NCBI GenBank assembly: GCA_000091205.1
Contig: AP006490.2
Reading direction: 5' to 3' (one strand)
Length of the DNA: 64,000 nucleotides
Origin: Cyanidioschyzon merolae
Lineage: Eukaryota
The notes under the pieces were generated by a model. It was not told where the DNA came from. It saw only the letters and a program-made list of their open reading frames with translations, and did no database searches. Each line of letters starts with the position of its first letter. The first letter of the stretch is position 1. Position numbers and translations under genes: made by a program. Below are positions 16,628 through 60,720 of this stretch, one piece after another.

Positions 16628-16855
16628 TCGCCCAGAGGCGTCCCGTGATCACGGGGTACTCCAGCGGGCGCGGCAACGGAGCGGGGGCATCCACGGAATC
16701 CTTCCGTGCCCGTCGAGGGCATGGATCGACTGTTAGCACAGGCGTTCATGTGTCACAGGGCGGTGTTCAGAAGAGGAGATGCGGCGAACGCGTGATGACA
16801 CCAGACCCCAGTCAAGCGCTGCGGATGCATATGGCGCACTGAGGCCGTCTACAAC
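16628..16855. repeat. Dispersed repeat, copy B (see 1-228)
   Basis: Near-identical to window positions 1-228. Confidence 0.8.
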
Positions 16856-22821: not shown

Positions 22822-23351
22822 AACATTCATGTGATATCGATTGCATAAATTGGATATAAAGGCTTGTTGGCGTCCGCTCCCACGCGCAGTTGGACAATCA
22901 TGACTTTAGCGTATATTTATGTATTAAACGGACACACTTCTCTGCATTCCGTTTTGCGGCTCTCCGCATGGGTGTCGATCACGGCTAGGCGAGCCCATTC
23001 CGAGCAACTAGGCGTCAATCGCTGGCGCTGCGACCCACGGACTGATAGGACGCGCTTTAGACAGAATGGCCCATTGTCTTGCTCCTAGCGCGCTGCGTGC
23101 CGCGTCTCCATACGCGTCGGACTCGTCGCGGCAACGTTGCGAAGACCCGTCGCCTCCGCGGCTGTTCGTTTTGTACACGGCAGAGCGGCGACTCGGTCCT
23201 GGACCATGCGCGTGATGCCTGTCGTCGCCCCGCAAAACGGCTGTCTCTCTAAGCGCTACACGTTTGCGCATTGTTTGCGTGTCGGCATGACGCGCAACTG
23301 GCAGAACAGCGCCGTATAGCACTCGCACAGACGCGAGCGTGGACAGAAAAG

Positions 23352-23422
23352 CAGGTACAGGCATAGGTACAGGCATAGGTACAGGCATAGGTACAGGCAT
23401 AGGTACAGGCATAGGTACAGGT
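23352..23422. repeat. 12-bp minisatellite (GTACAGGCATAG)n, about 6 units. The homologous site in the other palindrome arm (about 27105-27125) has about 2 units.
   Basis: 'gtacaggcataggtacaggcatag...' run. It generates the (PMPV)n and (YACT)n artefact ORFs. Confidence 0.9.
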
Positions 23423-23620
23423 GTGGGCTCCAGGTCGGCCCCGGAGAAGGAAGCGTGTGCAAGTACCATGGCGGCTAAAAATCGTTCGCAAAATATCACT
23501 TTATAGGCATCGAGGCTACGCATCAACGCACGGACGATCACTCACTCGCTTTCCATAGGTCGTATCCTTCCTCCATTGCATCCGGTCTTCCTTACATCAA
23601 GGCTTTCACCGCTCTCCGCT

Positions 23621-23914
23621 TTAGTTCCCCTGGAACTTTTCCTTGGTGGCATCTGCTGCGTGCTCTATTCCTTTCTTCGCAGACTGACCGGTTTCCTTCA
23701 GGTGATCCACTGCATCACCCGCCTTGTCTTGAGCTTTCTCCTGTGCGGACTTTTGCCCGGTGAGATCACGGAACTTGTCAGAGATCGTCTCCTTCGCCGA
23801 TGAAAACGCACCAGTGACAGACTCTTTCGCAGAATCCAAAGCGCCACCCGCTTTCTTCTCCGTATCTTTGAGAGCCGACTGTGCTGAGCTTGTATCTTGA
23901 GCTCCGGAAGACAT
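23621..23914 (-). CDS. Small hydrophilic stress-protein-like gene, copy A (97 aa; CsbD/LEA/Con-6-like, K/E/A/Q/G-rich)
   Basis: 'MSSGAQDTSSAQSALKDTEKKAGGALDSAKESVTGAFSSAKETISDKFRDLTGQKSAQEKAQDKAGDAVDHLKETGQSAKKGIEHAADATKEKFQGN*'. The paralog in the other arm has the same length and about 75% aa identity. The listed ORF 23621..24934 is a chance read-through from the upstream element. Confidence 0.6.
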   Translation of the reverse strand: MSSGAQDTSSAQSALKDTEKKAGGALDSAKESVTGAFSSAKETISDKFRDLTGQKSAQEKAQDKAGDAVDHLKETGQSAKKGIEHAADATKEKFQGN

Positions 23915-24040
23915 ATCACAATTTATAATGCTTTCGTAAACTCGAAAAATGCATATGCAAATGAGGTACCACGGCGCGCGCGGTGGCCGCACAGCCACAA
24001 ACACAGGAGATTTTACCGCAACAGGACCCGCACGCACCGC

Positions 24041-25320
24041 AGTTTGAAAGTCGAACGACGGCGGTGTACAGTAGCGGCGAACGATGCGCCCTAGACGACG
24101 TCTCCAACTGAGGTGCAGACGCCTCCCGGCCTTTTTGGACCGGCCACCCGCTACTGCTTCCAACTTTTTCTCAAATAATTCCACTTTGGGAGGTTGTCCA
24201 ATAACGTTCTCTCGTGGCAACTCTGGAGGTCTGCTCTCGAGCACCGCACATGTCGTTATCTTGATAGCGGCGTTAAAGTCTCGGTTCACAAACTCCATAC
24301 GTTCCGTGCCATCATTGGTTGTACTTACTAATGCAAGCAGTCCCCGAACTTTCGCCCTCCTTTCCATTTGCGCTTCCGTCAGCGGTCCGTACTTTGCTAT
24401 TCCCTCAGGGCTGCTCCGACACTTTTCTATCTCGACACTTTGAAGTGTACACCCCAGTTCATGGTGTGTATACGATGTTCGGAACTCATCTATCGATATC
24501 GTAACAAAACGTCGTGCACACTCTATGTACGTTCTCGTCGTTAGAGCTGGTGTACACCTTTTTTGGGTCTTCCAGCGCCCTGATCCGTACGCTACTACCA
24601 GCCTTTGGCTCTCGTCCTCCTTCAGGGCGTTCAACTCATTGAAAAAGTTCGCGAGCACGCGCTGCCTCCCACCGTATAGACTCATTCGCAGACGAGCCCA
24701 CCGGGGCTTTGTATACTCCTCCCGTAGCGCCTCCCGATGAGGAACACGAACTTCCATGACTTTCCGAGAAGCTTGAAAGTGTGCTCCGCGGCCCGTCACC
24801 TCGCTCAAAGCTTCCAGGTGATCCTTCATTCCTGCATCCCATGCAGGAATTTTCTTCCTCGCATTCATGACTCCCGATTCTCGATAGTATCTTGCTCTCG
24901 GGAACCTCAAAAGACGCATGTCTTTCTGACGCAAGGAACCGTCAGTACTATCTTCCGCACGCTACGCTGCGCGATGGTTATGATACTCGTATTCTCAGGG
25001 TCCGCGCCAACGACAAAGCCGTTATCTTGCACTTTCTGCACCGCAGGATCCGCCTCCTTCTCATCTTCATGCTGCACCACGTCAACGACAAAGTCGTTAT
25101 CCTGCACTTTCTGCGTCGCGGTACCCGCCTCCTTCTCATCTTCTTGCTGCGCCACGTCAACGACAAAGTAGTTATCCTGCACTTCCTGTGTGGCAGGATC
25201 CGCCTCTTTGTTTTCTGCATCCTTCGTCACGGGCGGAGCCGAGGGCGGAACTGGCCGATCTGTCTTCAACCGCCGATAGTGTACACACAAGGCTACTCCA
25301 TCGGTTTCGATCATCCCAGT
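24041..25320 (-). mobile_element. TnpB/Fanzor-like element, copy 1. The 3' about 1.3 kb is present; the 5' end is truncated at the palindrome centre. It carries a frameshift shared with copy 3 and has lost its stop codon (TGA to TGT).
   Basis: ORFs 24907..25326 (- '...VGADPENTSIITIA') and 23621..24934 (- 'MRQKDMRLLRF...MEFVNRDFNAAIKITTCAVLE...GRSKKAGRRLHLSWRRRLGRIVRRY'). About 98% identical to the 3' half of the 27.4-30.1 kb copy. Confidence 0.8.
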
Positions 25321-25372
25321 GAACAACTTTTGTTTGCTGACTTTGAGCCGTTCGAAACTGAAGATATTCTTC

Positions 25373-26572
25373 GTTGGGATGATCGAAACCGATGGAGCAG
25401 CCTTGTGTGTACACTATCGGCGGTTTCAGGCGGATCATCCAGCTCCGTCTTCGACTTCGCCGGGACGGAGCATGAAGCGAAGAAAGAGGCGGATCGTGCC
25501 ACGCAGAAAGTGCAGGATAAAGAATTTCCCATTGACGCTACGAAGCATGAAGATGAGATGGAGGCGGATACCGCGACGCAGGAGATGCAGGATAACGACT
25601 TTGTCGTTGGCGCGGACCCTTGGAACACGAATATCATTGGCATGGCTGTACCCAAGCGTGCGGAAGATGGTATCAACGACAGCCCATTTCAGAGAGACAT
25701 GCGTCTGTTGAGATTCTCGAGAGCAAGATACTACCTAGAATTGGGAATCATGAATGCAAGGAAGGAAATTGAGGCATGGAATGCGGAAGTGAAAGAGCAT
25801 CAGGAAGCTTTGAGCGAGGTGACAAGCCGAGGAGCGGGCTTTCAAGCTTTTCTGAAATTCATGGAAGTTCGCATTGCGCACTGGGATGCATTGTGGGAGG
25901 AGTATACAAAGCCCCGGTGGGCTCGTTTGCAAATGAATCTATACGTTGGGAAGCAGCGGGCCTTCGCGAGTTTTTTCAATCAGTTGAGTGCCCTGAAGGA
26001 GGATGAAAATCAGAGGCTCGTAGTAGCGTATAGAGCAGGGCGCTGGGCGCCCAAGAAAGGCACTACGCCAGCTCCAACGACGGGGGCGTACAAGGAGTGC
26101 GCACGGCGTTTCGTCGCGATACCGATAGATGAGTTCCGTTCGTCCTATACACTCCATGAACTGGGGTGTACACTTCAGAGAGTGGAGATGGAAAAGTGCC
26201 AACGGAGCCCTGAGGAAATAGCAAAGTACGGACCTCTGACGGAAGAGCAAATGGAAAGGAGGGCGAAACTTCGGGGGCTACTTGCATTAGTAAGTACAAC
26301 CAGTGATGGCAAGGAACGTATGGAGTTTTTAAACCGAGACTTTAACGTCGCTATCAATTTAAGGAGATGTGCGGTGCTGGAGACGAGACCTCCAGAGCTG
26401 ACAAGAGAGAACTTTGTTGGACAACCGCCCAAAGTAGAACTATATGAGAAAATATGGAATCAGTAGTAGGTGGCCGGTCCAAAAAGGCTGGGAGGCGTCT
26501 GCACGTCAGTGGGAGATGTTTCGTCTAGGGCGCGTGCTTCGCCACTATTGTACACCGTTGGCGTCGTTCGAG
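25373..26572 (+). mobile_element. TnpB/Fanzor-like element, copy 2. The 3' about 1.2 kb is present; this is an older, more diverged subfamily member and is in-frame through the RuvC-I region.
   Basis: ORF 24892..26466 from '[16 protein letters not shown]' onward reads '...DNDFVVGADPWNTNIIGMA...ERMEFLNRDFNVAINLRRCAVLETRPPELTRENFVGQPPKVELYEK'. About 80% aa identity to other copies. The 3' module 'ggtggccggtccaaaaaggctgggaggcgtctgcacgtcag...gtacaccgttggcgtcgttcga' is present. Confidence 0.75.
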
Positions 26573-26605
26573 TGCGAAAGGTGTTCCCTTAGCGTCGCAG
26601 TGACA

Positions 26606-26899
26606 ATGTCTTCTGGGTCGCAGGATACCTCTTCTGGTCAATCAGTTCTCAAAGATGCCGAGGCGAAGGTAGGCAGTGCATGGGAATCCACGAAGGAGTC
26701 AGTTTCTGAAGCGTTCACTTCGGCCAAGGAGACTATCTCTGACAAGTATCGTGATCTCACCGGCCAAAAGTCCGCGCAGGAGAAAGCCCAAGACAAGGCG
26801 AGCGAGGCGGTGGATCACCTAAAGGAAACCGGTCAGTCCGCGAAGGAGAGTTTGCAGCACGCTGCAGATGCAGCCTCGGAAAAGTTAAAGGACGGCTAA
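26606..26899 (+). CDS. Small hydrophilic stress-protein-like gene, copy B (97 aa)
   Basis: 'MSSGSQDTSSGQSVLKDAEAKVGSAWESTKESVSEAFTSAKETISDKYRDLTGQKSAQEKAQDKASEAVDHLKETGQSAKESLQHAADAASEKLKDG*'. Same length as copy A, intact ORF, and it begins about 35 bp after the copy-2 element terminus. Confidence 0.6.
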   Translation: MSSGSQDTSSGQSVLKDAEAKVGSAWESTKESVSEAFTSAKETISDKYRDLTGQKSAQEKAQDKASEAVDHLKETGQSAKESLQHAADAASEKLKDG

Positions 26900-27703
26900 C
26901 GGAGAGAGCGTAGAAAGACTTGAGTGAAGGATGCACGGAAGTAAAACAGGAAGGATACGACCTATGGACAGCGAGTGAGTGATCGTCCGTGCGTTGATGC
27001 GTAGCCTCGATGCCTATAAAGTGATGTTTTGCGAACGATTTTTAGCCGCCATGGTACTTGCACACGCGTCCCGCTCCGGGGCCGACCCGCAGCCCACACC
27101 TGTACCTATGCCTGTACCTGCTTTCCTGTCCACGCCCGCGTCTGTGTGAGTGCTATACGGCGCTGTTCTGCCAGTTGCGCGTCATGCCGACACCCAAACA
27201 ATGCGCAAACGTATAGCGCTTATAGAGAGATAGTTGTTCCGCGGGGCGAGCGCCCGCAATCGCAGTCGAGGGCACAATCGACTCGATCGCTGCCGCACGG
27301 GGCGCGACGCATCGCACGCTGTGGTGCAGCGCAGCGCGTACCGGCCTCTGGAAGCAAGTTGTGCGCAGCAGCGATCTGAGGCCTTTATCCATCGGTGCAG
27401 CGTCTCGCGCGGTGCACGCATCGCGCTCGGTGAGCGTACCCGGGAGATCAGGCAGATATGAGACACGACGCGCATGTCGCCGCTGAAGGGAAACGCGATC
27501 CTGACCATTCGTTGACGTGTTGTTCTAACGTAAAACTTGTATTTGCATTGGAATCGTAACAGAATATATTGTTTCATCTCAGTCGTGTTTCAACCTTCAA
27601 GTAAAAATACTCGAGCGCTTTTTCGCGGTTTAGAGCAGAGACGTTAATAGTGCGTTCTAAATCAAAAAAAAAAAACTAAAAAAGGAAAGTTCTGGACAGC
27701 GAA

Positions 27704-30068
27704 GTGGAGGACCCTGGAGGGTCAGTATCGCTGGCAGGCGAGAAAAAAGGAGCAAAAGAGCCAAACATAGAAGAACGAGACAAGACGAAGAAGCAGACGG
27801 GGGAGGTCCTACGTCAATGGCTGCAAGAAAGACGACAGTACGACGAGATGGAGGTGAAAACCTGTCTTCTCGGCTATAGCAAGGATTCGTAGAAGAAAAA
27901 ATTGCGAGAGTCCATCAGAAACTGTGACGAGTCGGACTCCATGAGTTTTCGTAAGACTTCTTTAGGAATGATGCATCTAGCGAGGGAGATGTATCGCGAC
28001 GTGACGCACATGGAAACAGTCGATGTTCCAGAAAAATTTTGCAACAGGAACTTTATTCTTCACCTGATGCTTGGTACAGGGGAAACATCGAGGAGAAATG
28101 AGCGGGTTCACGCCCTCCACGAAAACTTCGCGGAATTCCGCTTCGAGGGTACTCGGTACAGAGGTGACTCGAATATTTACATATACGGGGCGATGAAGTA
28201 CCTCACGAATCTGAAGAACCATTTGACAGTGAACCTTGAACGTTTCATGAGACGCTCGGTGTTTGCACTCTACCGGGGCATCTCTCGCACAGGAATACGG
28301 GCGATTACCAATGGCATCACCAACGAGCACCAGAATGAAGATGAAGTCGAATTTGTCGACAAGAAGGCGTCAAACGAGCGCACGAATGAAGCCTCTGTAA
28401 TCCGTGCGGTTATACAAGAGCGCCGTGCAATCTTGGGGTTGGCGGATCCAATAGACAAGATACCAGAGTTGAAAAAAAATATAAGGAAAGACACTATCGC
28501 CTCATCCTGCGATATTTCGTGTTTTTGCACCGAGAGCCCGAACGCAGTGCGCAGATGAAGCCGAGTGAGGAAAAAATATGAAGAGTGGGAGAGACGGAAA
28601 GCTTTCCTAATGGGGAAGCGCTTCAACGTCGTTCCAATGTGCAGCATCAAGTCACATTTTGTGACTGTCGACCCAACGTACGTTACAGCAAATTGAAGGA
28701 GATCTGTCCGGAGTTCAATGTAAGGAAGACAGAGTTCGCCGGTGAAAACCGGGAGACGTACTGGAAGAACATCTTCAATTTCAAACGGCTCAAAGTCAGC
28801 AAACAAAAGTTGTTCACTGGGATGATCGAAACCGATGGAGTAGCCTTGTGTGTACACTATCGGCGGTTGAAGACAGATCGGCCAGTTCCGCCCTCGGCTC
28901 CGCCCGTGACGAAGGATGCAGAAAACAAAGAGGCGGATCCTGCCACACAGGAAGTGCAGGATAACGACCTTGTCTTGACGTGGAGCAGCATGAAGATGAG
29001 AAGGAGGCGGATACCGCGACGCAGAAAGTGCAGGATAACGACTTTGTCGTTGACGTGGTGCAGCATGAAGATGAGAAGGAGGCGGATCCTGCGGTGCAGA
29101 AAGTGCAAGATAACGGCTTTGTTGCTGGCGCGGACCCCGGGAATACGAATATCATCACCATCGCAGCACCGAGGCGTGCGGAAGATGGTACTGACGGTTC
29201 CTTGCGTCAGAAAGACATGGGTCTTTTGAGGTTCCGGAGAGCAAGATACTATCGAGAATCGGGAGTCATGAATGCGAGGAAGAAAATTCCTGCATGGGAT
29301 GCAGGAATGAAGGATCACCTGGAAGCTTTGAGCGAGGTGACGGGCCGCGGAGCACACTTTCAAGCTTCTCGGAAAGTCATGGAAGTTCGTGTTCCTCATC
29401 GGGAGGCGCTACGGGAGGAGTATACAAAGCCCCGGTGGGCTCGTCTGCGAATGAGTCTATACGGTGGGAGGCAGCGCGTGCTCGCGAACTTTTTCAATGA
29501 GTTGAACGCCCTGAAGGAGGACGAGAGCCAAAGGCTGGTAGTAGCGTACGGATCAGGGCGCTGGAAGACCCAAAAAAGGTGTACACCAGCTCTAACGACG
29601 AGAACGTACATAGAGTGTGCACGACGTTTTGTTACGATATCGATAGATGAGTTCCGAACATCGTATACACACCATGAACTGGGGTGTACACTTCAAAGTG
29701 TCGAGATAGAAAAGTGCCAGAGCAGCCCTGAGGGAATAGCAAAGTACGGACCGCTGACGGAAGCGCAAATGGAAAGGAGGGCGAAAGTTCGGGGACTGCT
29801 TGCATTAGTAAGTACAACCAATGATGGCACGGAACGTATGGAGTTTGTGAACCGAGACTTTAACGCCGCTATCAAGATAACGACATGTGCGGTGCTCGAG
29901 AGCAGACCTCCAGAGTTGCCACGAGAGAACGTTATTGGACAACCTCCCAAAGTGGAGTTATTTGAGAAAAAGTTGGAGGCAGTAGCGGGTGGCCGGTCCA
30001 AAAAGGCCGGGAGGCGTCTGCACCTCAGTTGGAGACGTCGTCTAGGGCGCATCGTTCGCCGCTACTGA
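27704..30068 (+). pseudogene. TnpB/Fanzor-like RuvC-family protein gene, disrupted (in-frame stop SKDS*; about 1-bp deletions near 28667 and 28960; a possible 100-nt GT..AG intron at 28530-28629)
   Basis: Reconstructed order: N-terminal '...MYRDVTHMETVDVPEKF...' is followed by a WED-like '...[36 protein letters not shown]'. An acidic 25-aa repeat of about three units precedes 'GADPGNT' (RuvC-I D). Next come '...LVVAYGSGRW' (RuvC-II position, Glu apparently replaced), a degenerate Zn-ribbon 'TSYTHHELGC...C', then 'NRDFNAAIKI' (RuvC-III D). Compare the TnpB consensus RDxNAAxNIxRRG. Confidence 0.7.
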
Positions 30069-30075
30069 ACCACTG
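29930..30075 (+). ncRNA. Candidate omegaRNA-like conserved 3'-terminal module, overlapping the ORF's last about 45 codons and ending at the element terminus
   Basis: A single string is conserved in all copies and in both solo fragments: 'ggtggccggtccaaaaaggccgggaggcgtctgcacctcagttggagacgtcgtctagggcgcatcgttcgccgctactg(tacaccgccgtcgttcgacttt)'. Short hairpins are visible: GGCC...GGCC, GAGG...CCTC, CGTCT...AGACG. By analogy, the TnpB/Fanzor guide RNA scaffold is encoded at the 3' end of the ORF and the right end. Confidence 0.3.
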
Positions 30076-30132
30076 GCGGCAGCGTTTTTCTTTTGAAAAG
30101 CGTTTGCTGCTCGGGGTGCTAGCGTTCCTGAA

Positions 30133-32073
30133 ATGGAACCGAAACCTACTGTGTTCAACTCTTTAACTCGTGAAAAGGAGCAGATTACCCTTTCATCGGA
30201 TCGCAGCTTTCTGAGCTGGTATATCTGCGGACCAACGGTCTACGATGCCGCACACGTGGGGCACGCGCGGAACTACGTCTCTTTCGACATCGTTCGACGC
30301 TTGCTCGTTGATTATTTCGGCATACCGGTACTTTATCAAATGAACATAACGGATGTTGACGATAAAATCATTCAAAAGTCGTTTGATTCTGGGGAGAGCT
30401 TCACAAACATAGCGCGTCGGTTCGAGGCGGACTTTTTCGACGACCTGGAAGCGCTGCACTGCCTGCCACCGGACGTTGTTACCCGAGTGACCGAGTACAT
30501 TCCTGAGATAACGGCATATGTTCGCAAACTTATGGAACGTGGATATGCCTACGAGGCGGCCTCTGGTTCCGTCTACTTTGACGTGGAAGCGTTTGAGCGA
30601 AGTGGACGACACCGTTTTGGGAAGCTCAGGCCTGCCGCTGCCGCAGCAGCAACGAGCGTTGAGACCCGACCGCATGCGGGTGCAAACGGGGTCGATCCTC
30701 CCAGCCTTGAGCAGCTCTCTGTCCAGGAAGAAAAACGGAACCCTCGAGACGCTGCTCTGTGGAAAGCCTCCAAGTCAGCAATGGAGCCAGGTTGGGAAAG
30801 TAACGGTCTAGCGCGGGGGCGTCCCGGCTGGCACATTGAATGTGCGGTCATGGCGTCGCTGGTCAGCTGTGCGGGTACGACACACTTGGATATTCACACC
30901 GGTGGTATCGATCTCGAGTTTCCGCATCATGACAATGAGATCGCGGAAGCGGAAGCGTACTTCGAGACCGACCTGTGGTCACGCTACTTTCTCCATTCGG
31001 GGCATTTGAATATTGAGGGCCTCAAAATGTCCAAATCGCTGAAAAATTTCATTACCATTCGTGAAGTTCTCCGTCGATGGAATTGGCGCCAACTACGTGT
31101 TCTGTTTCTCATGCACCATTACCAGACGACCATGAACTATTCTGAAGAGAGCATGACACATGCGGCAGCAGTCGAAAGGACCATCCAGGAATTTATGCGT
31201 TCTACAGAGGCAGAGCTGCGGGCGCACTTGCCCGAGGAACGCCATCGGAAGCCCACAAAAGTCGATCTAGAGCTCTTATACCAGGTACTGCCTGCAACTG
31301 AGGCCACTGTTCGTGCCCACCTGAGCGACAACTTCAACACACAGGACGCGTTGCAGGACTTGCTTACACTGATTCGCACGGTGAATCTCCATCGGCATGA
31401 AACACCGGGGGGCGTTGGATACGCCACTCTACATCACATACGCAGCTCCGTCGGTCGTATACTATCTTGTTTCGGTCTTGACTACGACGTCAAGGATGAT
31501 GTCGCGTCCCAGGGCGGAGCTGCACTGGCCTCCGTCGAACCGTGGATTCAGGGGGCCGTGCGCCTCCGCGACCAGATTCGCGAAGTTGTACTTTCGGCGG
31601 ATGCAAATACTGACGCGAACGCCCTCAAAGAAAGTATTCTTGCGGTGTGCGACGAGTTTCGGGATGCGGTATTACCGCCTCTGGGGGTACGGCTCGAGGA
31701 TCGGACGTATCCGAAACCAGCAATCTGGAAATACGATGATCCTGCGGCTATTCAGGCGGACATCGAGCAGCGGCGGCAAGCCGAAGCTGCGCGAGCAGCG
31801 GAGAAAGAGGCCCGTCGTAGAGAAGCGGAACAGCGGCTCTTGAAAGAGCTCGAACAAGGTCGCACGCATCCTAGTCAAATGTTCCTGGACCCGAGTCTCT
31901 ATTCCCAATGGCGAGAGGACGGCATTCCGACGCATGACGCCGAGGGTCGCGAACTCGAAAAATCTCGCGTGAAGCGACTCTTGAAAGAGCAACAGCGTCA
32001 AGAGCGTCTACATCGCAAATTTCTGGAAGCACAGGCTTCGGGCCTCTTGTCCAAACTTGGCATGGAGCCTTGA
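30133..32073 (+). CDS. Cysteinyl-tRNA synthetase (class I aaRS), 646 aa
   Basis: HIGH motif 'AAHVGHARNY' and KMSKS motif 'KMSKSLKNF' are present and the protein is collinear with CysRS. The Lys/Arg/Glu-rich C-terminal extension is typical of eukaryotes. Confidence 0.9.
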   Translation: MEPKPTVFNSLTREKEQITLSSDRSFLSWYICGPTVYDAAHVGHARNYVSFDIVRRLLVDYFGIPVLYQMNITDVDDKIIQKSFDSGESFTNIARRFEADFFDDLEALHCLPPDVVTRVTEYIPEITAYVRKLMERGYAYEAASGSVYFDVEAFERSGRHRFGKLRPAAAAAATSVETRPHAGANGVDPPSLEQLSVQEEKRNPRDAALWKASKSAMEPGWESNGLARGRPGWHIECAVMASLVSCAGTTHLDIHTGGIDLEFPHHDNEIAEAEAYFETDLWSRYFLHSGHLNIEGLKMSKSLKNFITIREVLRRWNWRQLRVLFLMHHYQTTMNYSEESMTHAAAVERTIQEFMRSTEAELRAHLPEERHRKPTKVDLELLYQVLPATEATVRAHLSDNFNTQDALQDLLTLIRTVNLHRHETPGGVGYATLHHIRSSVGRILSCFGLDYDVKDDVASQGGAALASVEPWIQGAVRLRDQIREVVLSADANTDANALKESILAVCDEFRDAVLPPLGVRLEDRTYPKPAIWKYDDPAAIQADIEQRRQAEAARAAEKEARRREAEQRLLKELEQGRTHPSQMFLDPSLYSQWREDGIPTHDAEGRELEKSRVKRLLKEQQRQERLHRKFLEAQASGLLSKLGMEP

Positions 32074-34959: not shown

Positions 34960-35300
34960 CGCTATGATGAGCGAAGCACCCGTTGTACGCAGTTTTGCTG
35001 CGTCGTTCCGTGCAGGCCTCTGACGCACCTGTTTGCGTAGCAGCGGTCAAACGTGGAACGTCAGCAGACGAAAACTGCCCTGACGCATCGATTATACGCA
35101 GTTTTGCTGCGTCGTTCCGTGCAGGCCTCTGACGCACCTGTTTGCATAGCAGCGGTCAAACGTGGAACGTCAGCAGACGAAAACTGCCCTGACGCATCCA
35201 TTGTACGCAGTTTTGCTGCGTCGTTCCGTGCAGGCCTCTGACGCACCTGTTTGCATAGCAGCGGTCAAACGTGGAACGTCAGCAAACGAAAACTGCCCAG
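34960..35300. repeat. Tandem repeat of a 109-bp unit, about 3.2 copies. Each unit is bounded by an inverted repeat (GCAGTTTTGCTG...CAGACGAAAACTGC).
   Basis: Units start at 34989, 35098 and 35207 and are about 97% identical. The repeat generates the repeated 'RSFAASFRAGL' and 'MRQRPARNDAAKLR' artefact ORFs. Confidence 0.9.
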
Positions 35301-41550: not shown

Positions 41551-42011
41551 TTCTACGCAAATGCCCCGATAACCTGCCAACACCGCCGTATTCGCAAGCG
41601 ATCATCGTCTGAACGAACAGTGATCTCCAAAGGCAAGTCTCGATGGTGGCGATGGTGATGCCGATGGCATTCGCGTACCCAAAGATCCCTGCTTCAGTGC
41701 TAGAATCTCGCACACCATAAGAAAAGCGAGCGAACATGATGCTCCACTGACGTCTCATGGCGAGCGCATACCGGTGTCGATCGCCGTGCACGAGCAGCAT
41801 CGGCCCCGGCAAGCGCACAACACGACGCACGACAAGCAAAGTCGCAGGCGTGCAAAAATGTAACGCAAAGGCGAACTCGCTCGTTCATCTGGGAGCATCT
41901 GGTTGCTCGCTTCAGCTCTAGACCATAAATAAAGCGCGAACACAAACACATAACGTACCCTTGATCATATCCAGTGAATCCGGGCAGGGCACACCACAAC
42001 AGCCTTCGACA

Positions 42012-43370
42012 TCAACCAAACGTATCATAGTCACGGTTTGCATTACGGTTCGATGACCAGAAGGGTGCGCGTTGCAGAGGTCGCCACCGCGTGCCAGCGG
42101 CTGCTTGTCGCACTGGTGATATCGCTCCTGCTGGTGTGTCGAGAAGCAGAGGCTCGCTCAGAATCGGACCGACGGCAACGTTCGCGCTCGCTTCGTGATC
42201 GCGCTCCAGCGCCTGACTCGCCTCAGTGGCAGCTTCGTTTTCAGTTCGATGAGCGGCCCGCTCTTCCCAGCGGTAAATACACAGGCCAATGAGGATCACG
42301 ACAAGGCCAACGAGGTCATACCAGTCGACGGGTTGCGCCTCATCGCCCATGAAAAATGACATGCAGAATGCAAAGCTCACCAGAGGGAGACGGAGCGTCA
42401 TCAGCATCGTATAGAGCGTTGCACCCCCGTGTTTGATCACCAGGATGCCGAATACATTATACAAGATGTTCGCAATCATATACAGAAGAACTGGGAGCCA
42501 TGCCCCCCGACAATGGTCGCACGGCGGCAGGGATGTGCCGTCGTCCCCGCGCTCTATTATGCAGTCGGTGCGAAGGACATCTTGACCGAGTAAGCACTTG
42601 ATTCCGTTCAGAAGAAGGCTAGGCAAGTCATGCAGTGGGACGCGGGCCGGTCCAAAAAGCCGCAGGGAATTCACCGGAATCAAAGAGAGCCCGATCAAGG
42701 ACTGATACCAGGCGATGTAGAACATGACTATGAACACGCTCATCTCTTGGCCGCGAAGGGCGTATTCCTTGTACACATGGGCTAGAGATTGCGGCAGTTG
42801 TGCAGCGAGAAACACCAAATTGAAGAACAGGAGGTCAACAGTGCCTGTGCTTGTGCTCCCGCTGCTGTGGATACCAATGAGCCGTGGCGTTAACACGACA
42901 AGTGCCCCTCCGATGATGACGCCCGCCGCAACAAACTGATGTACGACGTATCGCGTCCCGAGAATGCAAGCGGACCAAAACATGGTCATGGGGATGCTGG
43001 CCTGGACGAGGATCATTTGTGTTGTGCCGCGAGTGTAGACACCTCCGAGGACGGTGCAGATTCCTGCGATTGCCTCTAGGAGACCGACAAAAGCGAGCTT
43101 GAGCTGCGGCAGCTCCTCATCTTCCAATGGCGACGGCCGATCGAAAACGCGCTTGAAGAGCAGCACGAGGCCCAGGACTGGCAAGTAAATCCAGCTCGTG
43201 ACCTGCGATAGAAAATAGGGATAATTTGGCATGGTATTTGTCATACGCTTGAAGAACACAGCATTCCAAACCGAGAAAAAAAGCAGTGCCGATGCATAAA
43301 CGCCCAGAACGCTCTGCTTTAGCCATCGGTCCGCAGGCTGGGACGGTTTCCAACTCGAAGCGCTGCTCAT
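42012..43370 (-). CDS. Polytopic membrane transporter, CRT-like (chloroquine-resistance-transporter-like) / drug-metabolite-transporter superfamily
   Basis: 452 aa with about 10 predicted TM helices. The overall architecture resembles CRT/CLT-family proteins. The assignment is by pattern, not by a strict motif. Confidence 0.5.
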   Translation of the reverse strand: MSSASSWKPSQPADRWLKQSVLGVYASALLFFSVWNAVFFKRMTNTMPNYPYFLSQVTSWIYLPVLGLVLLFKRVFDRPSPLEDEELPQLKLAFVGLLEAIAGICTVLGGVYTRGTTQMILVQASIPMTMFWSACILGTRYVVHQFVAAGVIIGGALVVLTPRLIGIHSSGSTSTGTVDLLFFNLVFLAAQLPQSLAHVYKEYALRGQEMSVFIVMFYIAWYQSLIGLSLIPVNSLRLFGPARVPLHDLPSLLLNGIKCLLGQDVLRTDCIIERGDDGTSLPPCDHCRGAWLPVLLYMIANILYNVFGILVIKHGGATLYTMLMTLRLPLVSFAFCMSFFMGDEAQPVDWYDLVGLVVILIGLCIYRWEERAAHRTENEAATEASQALERDHEASANVAVGPILSEPLLLDTPAGAISPVRQAAAGTRWRPLQRAPFWSSNRNANRDYDTFG

Positions 43371-43399
43371 ATTGCTCGCTTATCGCGTGCGCTACGCTG

Positions 43400-43732
43400 T
43401 CGACGGACAACGTACCAGGTTTTTTCGTCGTTCCAAACAGGTTCTGGATCTCGATGTGGTAACGCAATATCTTTGCCAGAATAAATACAGGACGCGTGTC
43501 CACGCAGCGCCTCCAGCTAAACGAAAGCGAGTTCCGGGCCCAGGTGCGTACGCCGCAGACGGACCGGAATCCTTCTACGAGGACTCGAAACTCGCAAGTG
43601 ACTGTTTGATGGAGCTTCTCGGTGATCCGCGGCGGAGTGAGCTCTTCATCGCCTTGACTGCAGCAGCGGAAAGCGGATGGGACTTTGTCGCGCTGGCTGC
43701 GCGATCGGCGAAGCCTGTGCTCACACACCAAC
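43400..43732 (+). pseudogene. Trehalase gene fragment. 43562-43732 is about 95% identical to 49329-49501 of the intact trehalase gene. Upstream there is weaker protein-level similarity ('RVHAAPPAK' vs 'RYHAPAAEG').
   Basis: 'ccggaatccttctacgaggactcgaaact.gcaagtgactgtt.gatgga.cttctcggtgatccgcggcggagtgagctcttcatcgccttgactgcagcagcggaaagcggatgggactt' is shared. The fragment's 'ESGWDFVALAAR' is a degenerate version of the trehalase 'ESGWDFSSRW' motif. It ends about 12 bp before the right end of the 43.7-kb element. Confidence 0.75.
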
Positions 43733-46046
43733 AACGCCGCTCTAAAGTCGAACGACGTCGGGCGTGTACAGTAGTGGCAGCAACCGCGCCCTCGACAAGA
43801 CGTCTCCAACTGACGCGCAGACGCCTCCCCGTCTTATTGGACCGGCCACCGATTACTGCTTCCAACTTTTTCTCATATAGTTCCACTTTGAGAGGTTGCC
43901 GCACAAAATTCTCTCTTGTCAGCGCTGGAGGTCTTCTTTCCAGCACCGCACATCTCCTGATATTGATAGTGGCATTAAAGTCTCGATTCACAAACTCCAT
44001 ACGCCTCTTGCCATCATTGGTTGTACTTACTAGTGCAAGTGGCCCTCACACTTTTGCCCTCCTTTCCATTTGCTCCTCCGTCAGCGGTCTATACTTCTTT
44101 ACATCTTCAGGGCTCCTCTGGCACTTTTCCATCTCGACCCTCTGAAGTGTACAACCCAGCTCGTGGTGTGTATAAGATGTTCGGAACTCATCTATCGGTA
44201 TTGTAACGAAACGCCGTGCGCACTCCTTGTACACCCTCGTCGTTGGAGCTGGCGTAGCTCCTTTCTTGGGCGCTCAGCGCCCTGCTCCGTACGCTACTAC
44301 CAGCCTTTGGCTCTCGTCCTCCTTCAGGGCGTTCAACTCATTGAAAAAGTTCGCGAGCACGCGCTGCCTCCCACCGTATAGACTCATTCGCAGACGAGCC
44401 CGCCGGGGCTTTGTATACTCCTCCCGTAGCGCCTCCCGATGAGGAACACGAACTTCCATGACTTTCCGAGAAGCTTGAAAGTGTGCTCCGCGGCCCGTCA
44501 CCTCGCTCAAAGCTTCCAGGTGATCCTTCATTCCTGCATCCCATGCAGGAATTTTCTTCCTCGCATTCATGACTCCCGATTCTCGATAGTATCTTGCTCT
44601 CGGGAACCTCAAAAGACGCATGTCTTTCTGACGCAAGGAACCGTCAGTACTATCTTCCGCACGCTACGCTGCGCGATGGTTATGATACTCGTATTCTCAG
44701 GGTCCGCGCCAACGACAAAGTCGTTACCCTGCACTTTCTGCGTCGCAGGACCCGCCTCCTTCTCATCTTCCTGCTTCACCGCGTCAACGACAAGATCGTT
44801 ATCCTCCACCTCCTGCGTCGCAGGATCCGCCGCTTTGTTTTCTGCATCCTTCGTCACGGGCGAAGCCGAGAGCGGGACTGAACGATCTTTCTTCAACCGC
44901 CGATAGTGTACACACAAGGCTACTCCATCGGTTTCGATCAACCCAGTGAATACCTTTTGTTTGCTCATTTTGAGCCGTTTGAAATTGAAGATGTTCTTCC
45001 AGTACGTCTCCAGGTTTTCACCGATGAACTCTTCCCTGTTAACATCGAACTCGGGAATGATCTCCCTCATGATGCCATAAAGGATTCTGGAGTCGATAGT
45101 CACAAAATGTGACTTGAAGTTGCACAACGGAACGACACTGAAGCGCTTACCCACTAGGGCAGCCTTCCGTCTCTCCCACTCTTCATTTTTCTCTCACTCA
45201 GCTTCATCTCTGCCTTGCGTTTGAGTTCTCGGTCCAAAATCACGAAATACCGCAGGACGAGGCGATAGTATCTTTCCTTATCTTTTTCAACTCTGATATC
45301 TTTTCTGTTGGATTAACCAACCCCAGTACCGCACGATGCTCTTGTATAACCGCGCGGATGACGGAATCCTCATTCGTGCTCTTGTTTGACGCCTTCTTGT
45401 CGACGACTTCGACCTCATCTTCATGCTTACGATCTTTCGTGATGCCATTGATAATCGCCCATTTTCCATTGCGAGATAGGCTCTGGTAGAGTGCAACCAC
45501 GGCGCGTATCATGAAACGTTCGAGGTTCGCTGTCAAATGGTTTTTCAGATTCGTGAGGTACTTCATCGCCCCATATGTGTAAATATCCCCGTCACCCTTG
45601 TATCGAGTACCATTGAAGCTGTAAAAGGGATGTTTTTCGTGGAGGGCATGCATTCGCTCGTTTTCCCTCCGCGCTTCCCCTGTAACAAGCATCAGCTGAC
45701 GAATAAAGGTCATGTCGAAAAACTCGTCCGGAATTTCGACTGTTTCCATATGCGTCACGTCGCGATACATCTACCTCGCCAAATGCATCAGTCCTGACGA
45801 CGCCTTGACAATACTCTCGGAGTCTGACGCAACACGTTTTTCGATAGCGTCTCGCAACGTTTCCCTGTTGGGATCCTTGATATGTTTAAGAAGACAGCCT
45901 TTAACCACCATCTCGTCGTACAGTTGTCTTTTTTGCCGGCTTCGACGTAGGACCTCACCTTTTGCTTCTTTTTCTCTTCCTTTTCTTCTGGAATCGGCAC
46001 TGTTTTTTGTTTTTTTTTCTGGCAGCCGGCGACACTGGGCCTCCAA
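43575..46046 (-). pseudogene. TnpB/Fanzor-like protein gene of copy 3, disrupted
   Basis: Same domain order as the 27.7-30.1 kb gene. The N-terminal half is about 75% aa identical to that copy and the C-terminal half about 98%. Confidence 0.7.
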
Positions 46047-46345
46047 GATCGTGGACTTGCTTTTTCATATCTTTCCTTTTTTTGTTTTTTTTGAAAAGGA
46101 ACGCTCTTTGGACGCTTGTGGTATATGCTGCGAAAAAACACTTGACTAGACTTGTTTGAAGTTTTAAACAAAAATGAGCTGAAAGACTGTACTTTGCTAC
46201 GAACTGAACGGAAATCCAACTTTTTACAGCTGAACAACACGCTTCTGATCGAGATCACGTTTCCCTTCAACGGCGAGATACATGTCGTGTCTCATGTCTG
46301 CCTGATCTCCCAGGTGCGCTCACCGATCGATGAAGGTCACGTGTC
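43745..46345 (-). mobile_element. TnpB/Fanzor-like element, copy 3. Near full length, minus strand. It carries a nonsense mutation (E to stop before MYRDVTH), the frameshift shared with copy 1, and others.
   Basis: Minus-strand ORF pieces 45771..46046, 45240..45770, 44609..45154, 44274..44636, 44046..44234 (other frame) and 43575..44000. The last reads 'MEFVNRDFNATINIRRCAVLERRPPALTRENFVRQPLKVELYEKKLEAVIGGRSNKTGRRLRVSWRR'. The 3' terminus is '...ctactgtacacgcccgacgtcgttcgacttt'. Confidence 0.8.
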
Positions 46346-48235
46346 CGACACCCCGCCTTGGCACTTGCGTGTTCGCATCGCGCAGCAGCAAAAATCAGGT
46401 GTCCTAAATCGAAAACTCACGTGGAGTAGTCTCGTGCTATAGGCTATGTCGCTGGTGCTGACGCTACTGCCCATCGCATTACCGCCCTGACAGACATGGA
46501 GCTGTTGGGGCCTGGCACGATACCTCTCGACGCTTCTATCAAATGCGTAGCGTTCTCTGCGGCTTACGCTTGTGTGGATAAGATACGCATCACTCTACTC
46601 AATAGGAATTTTGTTAGTTTTATTGATCGTAAACAAACAAGGTACGGTAGGATTCCTGAACACGGATACAAGTTTATTTCCTATGCTTGTAATGCATGCT
46701 GCACGGACGCTGGAATAAGGAACTGACATGAATTTTGCTTCTTTCCGGCGTCATGGGCTGGTACTGATGACCGTTCAAGTCATTTTCCATGCTATCGTCA
46801 TTGCCCAAGTTATGGTGCCTGCTACTGTCTCGGACCCGGTGATCTTGACAGAGGCATAGCACACAGGTAGCGTCCATATCTGCCACGACGTTTGAGCCTT
46901 GCATCTCGCCTGGCACGATCGAGGAACCCGATAAAAGCACATACTGTATTCTTATCTACTCTATAAGATTAGTTTCAAGAGCCTAACCTGTATGTAGTTG
47001 TGCAAGCACCAAACCGTAAACTTATCTGCACCCCCTACGCCCCCCGCCATTCCTTAAGCAAGCGGATGTTCGTTAGCCACCTGCTGATTTTTCCCTTCCA
47101 GTAGTAAAACTGCTCAAGAGACGGATTTTTTCTCTATCCCTTACCGTTCAATGGAAAGAAAACGTTTCACGACCATGTAGGGTAAATTAATATCCAATCA
47201 CAGACGTCTCCTAGCCTTTTCCACCGGCCCCCTGCTATCGGTTGCAGCTTCTCTTTGTACAATTCGACCCTGAGAGGATGTCCCAGAAAGGTGGACCGCG
47301 TCAGCTCCGCCGGTCGCGCCTCCATCACCATTCGTCTTCTGATATTGATGAGGTTTTGTCGAAAACGCTAGTGATAGAGCTGAGGTCAAGAAACGATCCA
47401 TCTTGACTGGCGCTATCAAACGATCGGTACCAGAAGCTGGAGGCTGCAGCCGGCACCAGGTGCTCTGGTGACGGCATGCTGGCCGTGAATAGTGCGCGAC
47501 GAAGCCGCACAGCATGCTACGGTTTCCTAGTACGTAGGTAAAACAAGCGCGTACCCTAAACGTTCATATTCAGGGCGATGACTAGTCGCCGCCACGGTAT
47601 CCTGGGAAAAATATGCGAGTGCACTTTGGTTGCTCGACTATCGAGCACCATCACGAGTATGGGTGCACTTCACTACACGGTTTCCAACGATCATTGAATC
47701 CACCATCATCCAAAAGTGACGAAAAGTCACAAGCGCACCGGCCTCGTACCTCCAAGTCAGGACTTGCCCATCAGCACGCACACAAATTTCGTGACCCGCT
47801 GCGCATTCACCAAACGAAAGGAAGCACGCGTTTCTTCATCCAGGGATAGAGGGTTCCAAATTCCTTCAGAGACTGCCGATGCTTCGCCCGAACCCAGACC
47901 ATCAGCTGCGGTATGCCCACGAGCATAAACCGGATGCCTGCGATTATCTGCGTCATCAATGTAAATCCTGCCCACACCAGTACCTCAAATGTGTGTCGTT
48001 CGGACACGACACAAGCTCGAAAACCAAGCCGTATGGGGCCTGTCGCAAGCGCCAGTGGCACACCAGGTTGCCAAGCTCACAAATGCCAAAGCACACCACG
48101 CCTATCCAAAAAAAGGCGGCAGCGTCAGCAGCGGAAAGCACCAGCTCTATTGATCAAGAAGCGCATCGATGCGCTTCTCGATCGACGAAACGCGAGCTCC
48201 GCGAGACGCATTCGCCATCAGTTGACGTATAGAAC

Positions 48236-50332
48236 GTGTGGTACTATGCAACTGTTCAGTACCGTAACCTGAGCACCATGACATTGAAAGTCATAGAAGC
48301 GTATGTGCATATGGCTTTTCGTCTGGGCGCGTTGGCGCCTGCATTTCCGAGTTCGGTTGTATACTGTGCCGCCAACTGCGCTGAAACTAGTGCCGGCTGT
48401 GAAAAGTCGCTGCTCGCAGTCGTTCAGCGACTCCGCATTTTCGCTGACTCAAAACACTTTGTGGATCTGCCTCTGCTACCTGGGCGAATACCGGAGCGGA
48501 TCATAGAGTACTGGGACGCTGAGTTCGGTCGCCGCGTTGTTGAGGAGCCGCTGGCGGGCCCAGGCGAAGCAACCAGCGGGCTCCGCGAGGCCGAGCGCGA
48601 GCCCCCTGTGCCCACCTTTCGGCTAGCACGTGTCGAGGGACCTGACACCGACTTCGAGGAGGTACGTCGCTTTCTGTTAGAGCACTTTGACTACGCGCCT
48701 GGTGGCGACTTGCTTGCCTGGATCCCGCGGGACTTGCCGCAGTTGGAGCTGGACCCTGAACCTGGAACGACAGCGACTGGTTCGCCACCGTTGCTGCACC
48801 AGATCTGGCGCTGGATGAAAGCACAGGATGTCGATGCGGGAAACTGGCTCATGGATATGGTCGCACGCTGGCGAAAACTCGGTCGCGAGACCTCGCCGAT
48901 GGTGTTCAGAGAACCTGAACGCTTCAGTCTGCTGCCCCTGAAACATCCATTCATCGTGGCTGGTGGTCGATTCCGCGAGTGCTACTACTGGGATACCTAC
49001 TTCATCGTTCGCGGCCTTCTGGTCTGCGGTATGTGGGAGACTGCGCGCTGCTGCGTTGAGAATCTTCTCGATCTGGTAGAGCAGTTCGGCTTTGTGCCCA
49101 ACGGTGCCCGCATCTACTATCTGAATCGTACCCAACCACCACTACTTTCGGATATGGTGCGCTGCATTGCAGAGCATGCACATGCCGGATGGGACGTGAT
49201 GACATTTTTGGGGCGAGCGTTGCCGCTTCTGGAGCGTGAATACAACTTCATGATGGAGCAACGGGCGGTAAAGATGCGCGCAGGGGGAACCCTAAATCGT
49301 TACCATGCGCCCGCAGCCGAAGGACCGCGACCGGAATCCTTCTACGAGGACTCGAAACTTGCAAGTGACTGTTCGATGGAACTTCTCGGTGATCCGCGGC
49401 GGAGTGAGCTCTTCATCGCCTTGACTGCAGCAGCGGAAAGCGGATGGGACTTTTCGTCGCGCTGGCTGCGCGACCGGCGAAGCATGTGCTCCATCCGAAC
49501 GCAGTTGATTATCCCTGTGTGTTTCAACAGTTTCATGCTTCGCATGGAACGCAATCTCGCTTTTCTCTACCAATGGTATATCAGCGGTAGCCGACCGGAA
49601 ACGGAAAAAGGTAGCATTTTCGAACAGCGGTTACCTGGAAATGAGGAGGTCCCCAATGACCCAGTGACAAGAGACTTGCTTGATCGAGTCCAACAGCGGG
49701 TCTCTACGATGCAAAAGTATTTATACGTACCAAGCCGGGATCAATGGATCGACTACGACCTGGAGGCCGATACAACGACCCTGCAAACGGTTGCAGATTG
49801 GCGGCAGACGGTGAGTTCGAGCAACTTTTTCCCGCTCTGGAGCGGCATCCTCGAGCATATCGAATCGGAACAAGCGGCTTCCATCGCGCGTGGCGTGCTC
49901 CAGTCGTTCGAGGAGAGTGGTCTCCTGCAAAACGGAGGCGTTGTTGCAACATTGGTGACCGATTCGGGTCAACAGTGGGATTACCCGAACGCGTGGCCAC
50001 CCGTGCAACTCCTGCTGCACGAAGCGTTTGCGTCGCTAGCGACGCAGTTTTCCGCGAATGAGCAAATCTCCAACCGAGCTCGCGAACTTTCTTTGCAGAT
50101 AGCCATCCGATTTCTGCGTTCTGTATACCAGGGCTGGCTTCGGAGTGGTGATCTTTTCGAGAAGTATCACGCGGAAAAGGTCGGAGAGAGTGGCAACGGC
50201 GGTGAATACGTTCCCCAGGTTGGATTCGGATGGACAATTGGGGTGAGCCTTGCGCTCTTGTCCAGTGTATGGCAGCTTGATCGAAGCCTGCTCGCACAAG
50301 TCTGGCAGAGGGTATCCGATGAAGCCACATAA
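48236..50332 (+). CDS. Trehalase (glycoside hydrolase family 37), about 690 aa; start may be the Met at about 48278
   Basis: Trehalase signature 1 'GGRFRECYYWDTYF' and signature 2 'QWDYPNAWPP' are present, plus 'AESGWDFSSRW'. Confidence 0.92.
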   Translation: MWYYATVQYRNLSTMTLKVIEAYVHMAFRLGALAPAFPSSVVYCAANCAETSAGCEKSLLAVVQRLRIFADSKHFVDLPLLPGRIPERIIEYWDAEFGRRVVEEPLAGPGEATSGLREAEREPPVPTFRLARVEGPDTDFEEVRRFLLEHFDYAPGGDLLAWIPRDLPQLELDPEPGTTATGSPPLLHQIWRWMKAQDVDAGNWLMDMVARWRKLGRETSPMVFREPERFSLLPLKHPFIVAGGRFRECYYWDTYFIVRGLLVCGMWETARCCVENLLDLVEQFGFVPNGARIYYLNRTQPPLLSDMVRCIAEHAHAGWDVMTFLGRALPLLEREYNFMMEQRAVKMRAGGTLNRYHAPAAEGPRPESFYEDSKLASDCSMELLGDPRRSELFIALTAAAESGWDFSSRWLRDRRSMCSIRTQLIIPVCFNSFMLRMERNLAFLYQWYISGSRPETEKGSIFEQRLPGNEEVPNDPVTRDLLDRVQQRVSTMQKYLYVPSRDQWIDYDLEADTTTLQTVADWRQTVSSSNFFPLWSGILEHIESEQAASIARGVLQSFEESGLLQNGGVVATLVTDSGQQWDYPNAWPPVQLLLHEAFASLATQFSANEQISNRARELSLQIAIRFLRSVYQGWLRSGDLFEKYHAEKVGESGNGGEYVPQVGFGWTIGVSLALLSSVWQLDRSLLAQVWQRVSDEAT

Positions 50333-60489: not shown

Positions 60490-60720
60490 ATAGGGCATCG
60501 AGTTGGCCTCGAAATGCGATCGTGAAAAGTCGTGAGACGTGTCGGCAAACGCTGTGGCGCCAGCGTAGCACGCGTGGTGACGAGAGCGAACCTAGTGGGG
60601 CAACCGCTCCTGATCGAGGTGTGCCAGGAGAAGCTGAAACCGATAGCATGCGGTCGGTCGAAAAACAAAAGGCTGGGAGGCGTCTCCATGTCGGTGCAGA
60701 GACGTGCACTCTATGGGTGT
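60490..60720 (+). mobile_element. Solo 3'-terminal fragment of the TnpB/Fanzor-like element, more diverged, lying 115-345 bp downstream of the CIA30-domain gene stop
   Basis: It encodes '...RANLVGQPLLIEVCQEKLKPIACGRSKNKRLGGVSMSVQRR', matching the element's '...RENVIGQPPKVELFEKKLEAVAGGRSKKAGRRLHLSWRRR'. DNA 'ggtcggtcgaaaaacaaaaggctgggaggcgtctcc' matches the 3' module 'ggccggtccaaaaaggccgggaggcgtctgc'. Confidence 0.6.

Follow-up and report, generated by a model that had tools for sequence, protein, structure and literature searches.

The locus described here lies in a stretch of 64,000 nucleotides (nt) of Cyanidioschyzon merolae (assembly GCA_000091205.1, contig AP006490.2), which was analyzed at its full length and is referred to as the window. 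Its cysteinyl-tRNA synthetase (30133-32073) and its CRT-like transporter are exact matches to the proteins BAM79775.1 and BAM79780.1, respectively, of C. merolae strain 10D. A transposable element of the Fanzor1 family CMe-1A occurs four times in the window (copies A, B, C, and D), and a short piece of trehalase coding sequence, hereafter the patch, is attached to the right end of copy D. The intact trehalase gene lies 5.6 kb away. The features of the locus, with open reading frame abbreviated to ORF, are the following:

43722..46329, minus strand: copy D, a CMe-1A Fanzor1 element in its 'short' form, which lacks the 5' ~640 nt of the 3.1-3.3-kb copies; the 5' boundary is uncertain.
43865..45653, minus strand: Fanzor1 pseudogene of copy D, with at least four frame changes and three in-frame stops relative to the intact relative P0036.
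43722..43957, minus strand: conserved 3' region of copy D with predicted structure, a candidate omega-RNA scaffold that overlaps the end of the Fanzor frame and contains a near-invariant motif at 43818-43847.
43722..43766, minus strand: terminal 45-nt hairpin of copy D (CACGCCCGACGUCGUUC-GACUUUA-GAGCGGCGUUGUUGGUGUG-UG; -24.8 kcal/mol, z = -5.1).
43702..43721, minus strand: putative omega-RNA guide position of copy D, the first 20 nt 3' of the terminus, AGCACAGGCTTCGCCGATCG.
43562..43722, plus strand: trehalase-derived patch with a core of 161 nt; gapped similarity extends leftwards perhaps to ~43540 (161-183 nt in total).
42012..43370, minus strand: CRT-like transporter gene (BAM79780.1) on the same strand as the element, with its ATG 352 nt downstream of the element terminus.
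48278..50332, plus strand: intact trehalase gene (PF01204) with its ATG at 48278; the longest ORF (698 codons) opens with GTG at 48236.
49329..49491, plus strand: source segment of the patch within the intact trehalase gene, as located by BLASTN; the point equivalent to the junction is 49491/49492.

Comparison of the window with itself by BLASTN aligned the patch (43562-43722) with positions 49329-49491 of the trehalase gene, both on the plus strand and 5.6 kb apart. The identity was 95.7% over 163 columns, with five substitutions and one 2-bp gap (E 2e-71 to 1e-69), which confirms the trehalase fragment that the first-pass annotation had reported at this end of the element. The patch is ordinary coding DNA, and the similarity is not a product of low-complexity sequence. 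The source segment is located inside the Pfam Trehalase domain (PF01204, E 2e-115) of the ORF at 48236/48278-50332, the product of which is 99% identical to the 684-amino-acid (aa) protein P0270, a strain variant. A protein search retrieved no second trehalase of C. merolae; the next match after the strain variant was 68% identical and belonged to another species. The patch is oriented sense to trehalase and antisense to both the element and the CRT-like gene, and its reading frame is broken by the 2-bp deletion.

One edge of the patch is clean and the other is messy. To the left of the core, weak gapped similarity continues for ~20 nt, to ~43540. Beyond it, the region 43371-43551 reached a score of 18 against the trehalase gene, equal to the shuffle maximum of 18. 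Thus, of the weaker similarity previously noted further upstream, only these ~20 gapped nucleotides stand. On the far side of the element, positions 45900-48235 contained neither the continuation of the gene from 49492 onward nor any other similarity to trehalase, and 46330-48235 gave a shuffle-level score against the remainder of the gene. Besides the patch, no trehalase similarity was detected anywhere in 43371-48235. As the identity falls from 97% to nothing within ~25 nt, the patch is, on these alignments, an isolated piece with sharp edges and not a decayed paralogue.

The element was assigned to a published family. CMe-1A was described as comprising ~150 copies of ~3 kb with ~80% identity to the consensus, without terminal inverted repeats (TIRs), with target site duplications (TSDs) that were not determinable, and with a 5' module of 635 bp in common with TE-N2_CMe (Bao & Jurka 2013, Mob DNA 4:12, PMC3627910). 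The element of the window is a degenerate copy of this family, because it is found in the same species, has a length of ~3 kb and a copy identity of ~80%, lacks TIRs, and contains a single Fanzor1 ORF; its long copies also carry a separate 5' module of ~640 nt. Individual copies are 66-89% identical, the long copies measure 3.05-3.3 kb, and a TIR search on the element was negative. In contrast to the published description (PMC3627910), which defines neither termini nor TSDs, the 3' terminus is here a 45-nt hairpin that closes with a GT-rich tail, and one copy carries a fused piece of host DNA.

Searches of Pfam-A with the element ORFs and distant relatives returned no family above threshold (Cas12f1-like_TNB remained below it, E 0.07), and a phmmer search with one element ORF found no match among the PDB sequences. 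The profile of the family, built from 78 diverse relatives, matched PpFz1 (9cf0, E 6.3e-20) and SpuFz1 (8gkh, E 2.6e-11) in the same set of sequences. An AlphaFold2 (AF2) model from a shallow alignment had a predicted local distance difference test score (pLDDT) of 34; the model reported here was calculated with the alignment of the 78 diverse relatives and reached a pLDDT of 84.9 and a predicted template modeling (TM) score (pTM) of 0.80. Its top seven Foldseek matches were SpuFz, PpFz, and GtFz (E 2e-14 to 5e-10; TM 0.47-0.60), with Cas12 far behind. The predicted structure shows the Fanzor/TnpB fold (WED-REC-RuvC-NUC). A split RuvC triad (D314, E486, and D555 in P0036 numbering) is located in the C-terminal half and is (near-)invariant in the 78 relatives, and the RuvC motifs GxDPG, VDEFRT, and NRDxNAAxNI are readable in copies A, B, and C. 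Profile matches and structural model therefore support the earlier assignment to the TnpB family. No intact Fanzor gene is present within the window, and scans of the window with Rfam (gathering thresholds) and for tRNAs yielded nothing.

The 3' terminus was located by comparison with further copies. When metagenome contigs were scanned for a conserved 30-nt motif of the 3' region, 42 loci were retrieved, which represent ~19 independent insertion sites; 17 right ends were aligned and 16 terminal sequences were folded. Conservation across the 17 right ends runs past ...CGTCGTTCGACTTT (window 43744). The sequence '...gtcgttcgacttt', previously regarded as the terminus, represents the 5' arm and the loop of the 45-nt terminal hairpin, and is followed by the 3' arm GA[A/G]CGGCG and the tail TTGNTGGTG[C/T]GTG. 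Compared with shuffled sequences, five of the six termini tested gave z-scores of -4.7 to -5.7. Most of the 16 right ends exhibit the same hairpin architecture with stems that differ and co-vary: in a second subfamily, the stem is different and no less complementary (AACGTTTTTC/GAAAGGCGTT), and the outer stem co-varies as CACGCC/GGTGTG, CACTGG/CCAGGGG, and CACTGC/GCGGTG. RNAalifold missed the terminal hairpin on the 17-copy alignment, in which the two subfamilies are out of register, and folds of the individual sequences were used.

The tails of loci L030 and L047 equal that of copy D through ...GGTGTGTG and diverge immediately beyond, and the BLAST alignments of copy D with more than 10 other loci start at 43718-43722. 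Based on the right-end alignment, the hairpin folds, this point of divergence, and the BLAST starts, the terminus of copy D is placed at 43722/43723. Base 43722 fits both the element tail and trehalase, which gives an overlap of 1 nt, and the trehalase match starts at the first base of the flank. According to these comparisons, the patch is joined base-to-base to the true 3' terminus of the element without a spacer. The ~12-bp spacer described before does not exist, as the terminus lies 22 nt beyond the claimed position 43744 and abuts the patch. Likewise, the 171-bp segment delimited earlier (43562-43732) is trehalase from 43562 to 43722, and its last 10 nt (43723-43732) are the terminal tail that the element has in common with its other copies. 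The motif GGCCGGTCCAANAAGNCNGGGAGGCGTCTG together with the terminal hairpin could serve as a marker of the CMe-1A 3' terminus.

Over the 17 copies, the 3' region shows a mean column identity of 82%, and nested stems with little covariation are predicted. This region is also coding, and a role at the DNA level in recognition by the transposase is as possible as one in an omega-RNA.

The junction is not specific to the reference assembly. Eight contigs from eight other samples (L001, L037, L039, L042, L059, L060, L061, and L062) span the element end, the patch, and the transporter gene, and are 97.5-99.5% identical to the window. An assembly chimera, which had been considered as a source of the junction, is excluded by these eight assemblies. 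All of them hold element and patch, and none presents an empty site at the locus. On this sampling, the patch is older than the split of all C. merolae lineages examined.

Differences between patch and gene were polarized with the gene of a sister species and 11 trehalase proteins. The patch keeps the outgroup state at 49374, 49474, and 49484, where the gene lineage has changed; the changes at 43593 and the 2-bp loss occurred in the patch lineage, and position 49381 was uninformative. Because the patch keeps outgroup states that the gene has lost, it is, by this polarization, a copy of an older version of the trehalase gene. The change at 49484 replaced leucine by methionine in the gene, at a position that is leucine in 11 of 11 other trehalases. 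The change at 49474 is synonymous, and its polarization relies on an outgroup of 69% identity.

In the sister species (L055-L057, trehalase 68% identical), synteny holds downstream of trehalase (a large ORF and a short-chain dehydrogenase) and breaks upstream, where neither a CRT-like gene nor a Fanzor was found within 10 kb. Contig L001 (JGI 3300053654, 2269 nt) corresponds to window 44061..41893: it begins inside copy D, crosses the patch and the CRT-like gene, and ends 119 nt past the CRT-like stop codon, where a fold-back follows. Should the sample be a metatranscriptome, this contig would represent a transcript that reads through from the element into the host gene.

The family shows a characteristic insertion habit. 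Of ~17 independent insertions, at least 10 have their right end 5-112 nt before the start codon (ATG) of an ORF (at least 100 aa) on the same strand. These right ends are found in the window at 30118/30133, 26585/26606, and 24024/23914 (right end/ATG), and at loci L012, L013, L015, L018, L019, L026, L030, L036, and L048. Such a frequency is far above that expected by chance from gene density and suggests either an insertion preference for the 5' ends of genes or the donation of a promoter. Guide positions would therefore usually hold sequence of the host 5' untranslated region or start codon. Copy D is an outlier at 352 nt from the CRT-like ATG, 161-183 nt of which are the patch. In its location upstream of the CRT-like gene and on the same strand, it fits the family habit.

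Filler DNA and templated insertions are known from double-strand breaks and transposon junctions, usually as experimental or somatic events. We tentatively favor, with a probability of about 0.45, the reading that the patch is filler host DNA captured at the right-end junction. CMe-1A would have inserted just upstream of the CRT-like transporter gene, as is typical for the family, and a piece of ~161-183 nt would have been copied as filler from the nearby trehalase gene by template switch or ectopic synthesis. The occasion for this copying may have been the joining of the right end to the chromosome, be it at insertion or in the repair of a break at the right-end boundary. Capture is favored because the patch is isolated, the family habitually inserts upstream of ATGs, and no paralogue is extant; of the three origins proposed in the first-pass annotation, a transduced or captured segment remains the best fit. 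As in known filler DNA, a short isolated copy (~160-180 nt) of a nearby locus sits right at a junction, clean on one side and messy on the other. Unlike most such cases, this is an old, fixed germline event, and clear microhomology is not visible.

Several observations weigh against capture as filler. No empty site or intermediate was found, the right-end junction has an overlap of only 1 nt, and the messy left junction shows no clean microhomology. When the other copies were inspected for foreign fragments at their right ends, only copy D among ~19 independent flanks (~0.5 Mb searched) showed a duplicated piece of host DNA, so that capture is not established as a habit of the family. Moreover, insertion into a short pre-existing duplicate combined with a deletion on the left-end side would look identical. 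Finally, the patch is only probably inert, as discussed below. The ranking of the origins is based on the anatomy of the locus and the family habit, from which we infer the order of events.

Two further mechanisms were considered and rejected. Retroposition with 3' transduction was discarded, since the far edge of the patch has no poly(A). A long TSD as in the Fanzor elements of Chlamydomonas was discarded as well, since the second repeat is located inside the intact gene, 3 kb past the 5' end of the element.

The element may instead have inserted into an earlier trehalase duplicate, that is, a tandem paralogue or a partial copy, of which deletions left 161-183 nt by the right end. The intact terminus and the clean junction are what a simple insertion would leave, and a patch with ~4% divergence that is fixed in all strains is old enough for such trimming. 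Nevertheless, this origin is unlikely. It calls for at least three events, no paralogue survives, and no continuation of trehalase is found on the left-end side or elsewhere in 43371-48235; instead of grading into decayed sequence, the match simply stops at its left edge. A position in the middle of a coding sequence and antisense to it is also atypical for a family that usually inserts just upstream of start codons, which counts both against a paralogue as the target and against a parent copy in trehalase. The old paralogue or pseudogene suggested earlier is thus not borne out by an isolated patch, a lack of similarity across the element, and a nearest further trehalase at 68% identity.

A parent copy of this kind would have resided on the minus strand at trehalase 49491/49492, and bypass of its end, as in Helitron- or IS91-type elements, would have moved ~170 nt of flank to the new site, with the parent subsequently lost or precisely excised. 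The order of element, flank piece, and new site is that of an end-bypass product, and the element resembles Helitron and Helitron2 elements in its terminal hairpins, the lack of TIRs, a T-run by the left end, many 5'-truncated copies, and host DNA on its end. In Chlamydomonas, the Fanzor1 elements CRe-1/2/3 are non-autonomous Helitron2 elements with one-ended transposition and captured sequences (PMC3627910). We nonetheless consider transduction improbable. The trehalase gene is intact and free of a footprint in every strain and in the sister species, and a parent in a single-copy gene would be deleterious as well as atypically placed. The patch comes, in antisense orientation, from within a gene that bears no trace of a parent copy. 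The ends do not conform to 5'-TC...CTRR-3' (the 3' end of CMe-1A reads ...GGTG(C/T)GTG), neither RepHel nor another transposase was seen in the window and the fetched loci, and a second terminus-like hairpin is not evident at the far edge of the patch.

A function of the patch was considered in view of its position. In Fanzor systems, the omega-RNA takes its guide, natively 11-21 nt long, from the flank at its 3' end, and a target-adjacent motif (TAM) is located 5' of the target (Saito et al. 2023, PMC10432273). The earlier suggestion that the flank deserved a second look as a guide is strengthened here, since the patch starts at the first flank base. Any omega-RNA transcribed from copy D would have a guide that pairs with the sense strand of trehalase. 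The corresponding target in the gene (49471-49490, minus strand) reads AGCACATGCTTCGCCGGTCG and agrees with the guide position at 13 of the first 14 and 18 of all 20 nt, with mismatches at guide positions 7 and 17; it is the only other match in the window with three or fewer mismatches. The 3' region with its predicted stems, which overlaps the ORF end and runs to the terminus, and the flank that begins where the guide would begin are in keeping with the TnpB/Fanzor guide rule (Saito et al. 2023, PMC10432273; Jiang et al. 2023, PMC10530073). Known guides match the vacant site of their element, whereas here, as read from sequence alone, 18 of 20 nt match an internal site of a host gene that holds no element.

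Both mismatches stem from changes in the gene lineage, at 49484 for guide position 7 and at 49474 for guide position 17. For two of three gene-lineage changes to fall within 20 of 163 nt, P is ~0.04, in a test that was picked after seeing the data. Of all five substitutions, two fall in the first 20 nt from the junction, which is not significant alone. That both guide mismatches are derived in the gene is suggestive of escape and does not prove it.

Two functional scenarios were weighed. In the first, the guide against trehalase was used in trans, with past cutting and escape of the gene; in a variant, the patch regulates trehalase or the transporter through antisense RNA. The near-match of the guide, the derived state of both mismatches including the replacement of an otherwise conserved leucine, and the intact hairpin and candidate scaffold of copy D speak for it. 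The 'ghost' loci of SpuFz1, element ends that bear an omega-RNA without a Fanzor ORF and for which action in trans has been suggested (Saito et al. 2023, PMC10432273), offer a parallel: copy D combines a dead nuclease gene with an intact 3' RNA region and could act only in trans, and it differs in retaining a decayed ORF. Such a function is, however, very unlikely, given the post-hoc nature of the test, the distant outgroup behind the synonymous site, and the absence of an intact Fanzor gene from the window. In addition, the bases that precede the gene target on its 5' side (CGTTCGGATG) do not resemble the T-run or T-rich flanks of the seven aligned left ends. Because the nuclease gene of copy D is broken, the mismatch at position 7 falls into the seed, and no family-like motif precedes the target, the patch is probably inert at present and cleavage of trehalase is unlikely. 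The earlier implication that the guide targets a functional gene therefore holds in part, for the match and not for a working nuclease or a family-like flanking motif.

In the more specific second scenario, which we regard as highly improbable, capture at the right end re-programmed the guide of copy D onto the only trehalase gene, and Fanzor from intact CMe-1A copies used this guide in trans. If so, the two derived substitutions in the target would be escape mutations, one synonymous and one replacing an otherwise invariant leucine, and no earlier trace of Fanzor cleavage in the genome of a native host would precede them; these elements would then have, in right-end capture, a route to new guides. 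Gene conversion, in which the live gene overwrote a tract of an older, diverged pseudogene, is barely tenable: the ~20 nt of weak gapped similarity left of the core would suit it, yet the flanking weaker homology it requires is absent, with no significant similarity further left and the element on the right, and the ancestral bases kept by the patch speak against recent overwriting.

The element family itself was known before; in the reading favored here, the patch adds a case in which the end of a transposon took up host DNA. If it is only filler DNA, as we think likeliest, it is a small example of such capture without consequence for the cell. The locus bears on what Fanzor nucleases do in their own eukaryotic hosts. 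It provides CMe-1A with a defined 3' terminus, marked by the hairpin and followed at once by the first base of the putative guide, and it is a natural case of a guide position that nearly matches a host gene and not the vacant site of the element. C. merolae has a complete genome of 16.5 Mb and allows efficient gene targeting by homologous recombination. The species thus lends itself to direct tests of how the guide is used, which TAM applies, and whether the ancestral and the present target are cleaved.

The left end was less sharply delimited. Seven left ends align from a T-run into CAATGACAAAACGTTTAC, an alignment that does not fix the exact boundary, and a search allowing mismatches found no further copies. 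A palindrome (TCAATG...CATTGA) and the adjoining T-run occur in all seven copies. A match of ~9 nt resembling an asymmetric terminal inverted repeat (ATIR) was read by eye in one copy only. At the 5' boundary of copy D (~46329), strain L042 (~10259) has ~36 extra nt between two TCGGTGAG repeats, which the window lacks, and the same ~36-nt sequence precedes copy C; 'short' copies therefore reach further 5' than BLAST shows.

The remaining copies in the window are the following:

24024..25372, minus strand: copy A, 5'-truncated, forming a palindromic pair with copy B.
25375..26585, plus strand: copy B, 5'-truncated, with a terminal hairpin that runs to 26585 and leaves 20 nt to the ATG of a small gene.
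27424..30118, plus strand: copy C, with its right end 14 nt before the ATG (30133) of the cysteinyl-tRNA synthetase gene.

Copies A and C agree at 98% of positions over 1.3 kb, yet their right-end hairpins belong to different subfamilies (24024-24066 in copy A and 30050-30118 in copy C), and one of the two termini must therefore be recombinant or replaced. Copies A and B are part of a palindromic duplication (23225-25372 / 25375-27249), in which two 5'-truncated Fanzor halves stand head to head with 78-82% identity. Beyond the right end of each half lies a paralogous gene for a small hydrophilic protein of ~97 aa; these proteins matched no Pfam family above threshold and gave only sub-threshold matches of the apolipoprotein and HSP12 kind.

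Within the Fanzor frame, tandem repeats of 75 nt (25002-25231, 28905-29133, and 44704-44852) encode a repeated acidic linker just ahead of the RuvC-I motif, and their copy number varies among copies and relatives. Among precomputed Pfam hits, PF26935 (DUF8286) labels the middle (REC-side) part of the Fanzor1 proteins P0007, P0010, and others, as well as L059 1104-1637. Diverged relics of the Fanzor 3' region (~70-78% identity) were found at 13493-13731 (plus strand), 47161-47351 (minus strand), and 60596-60685, one of them between copy D and the trehalase gene. Unrelated to the element, positions 1-235 and 16631-16868 form a 235-nt repeat with 97.5% identity at a distance of 16.6 kb, and a tandem array with a period of ~109 nt occupies 34973-35298.

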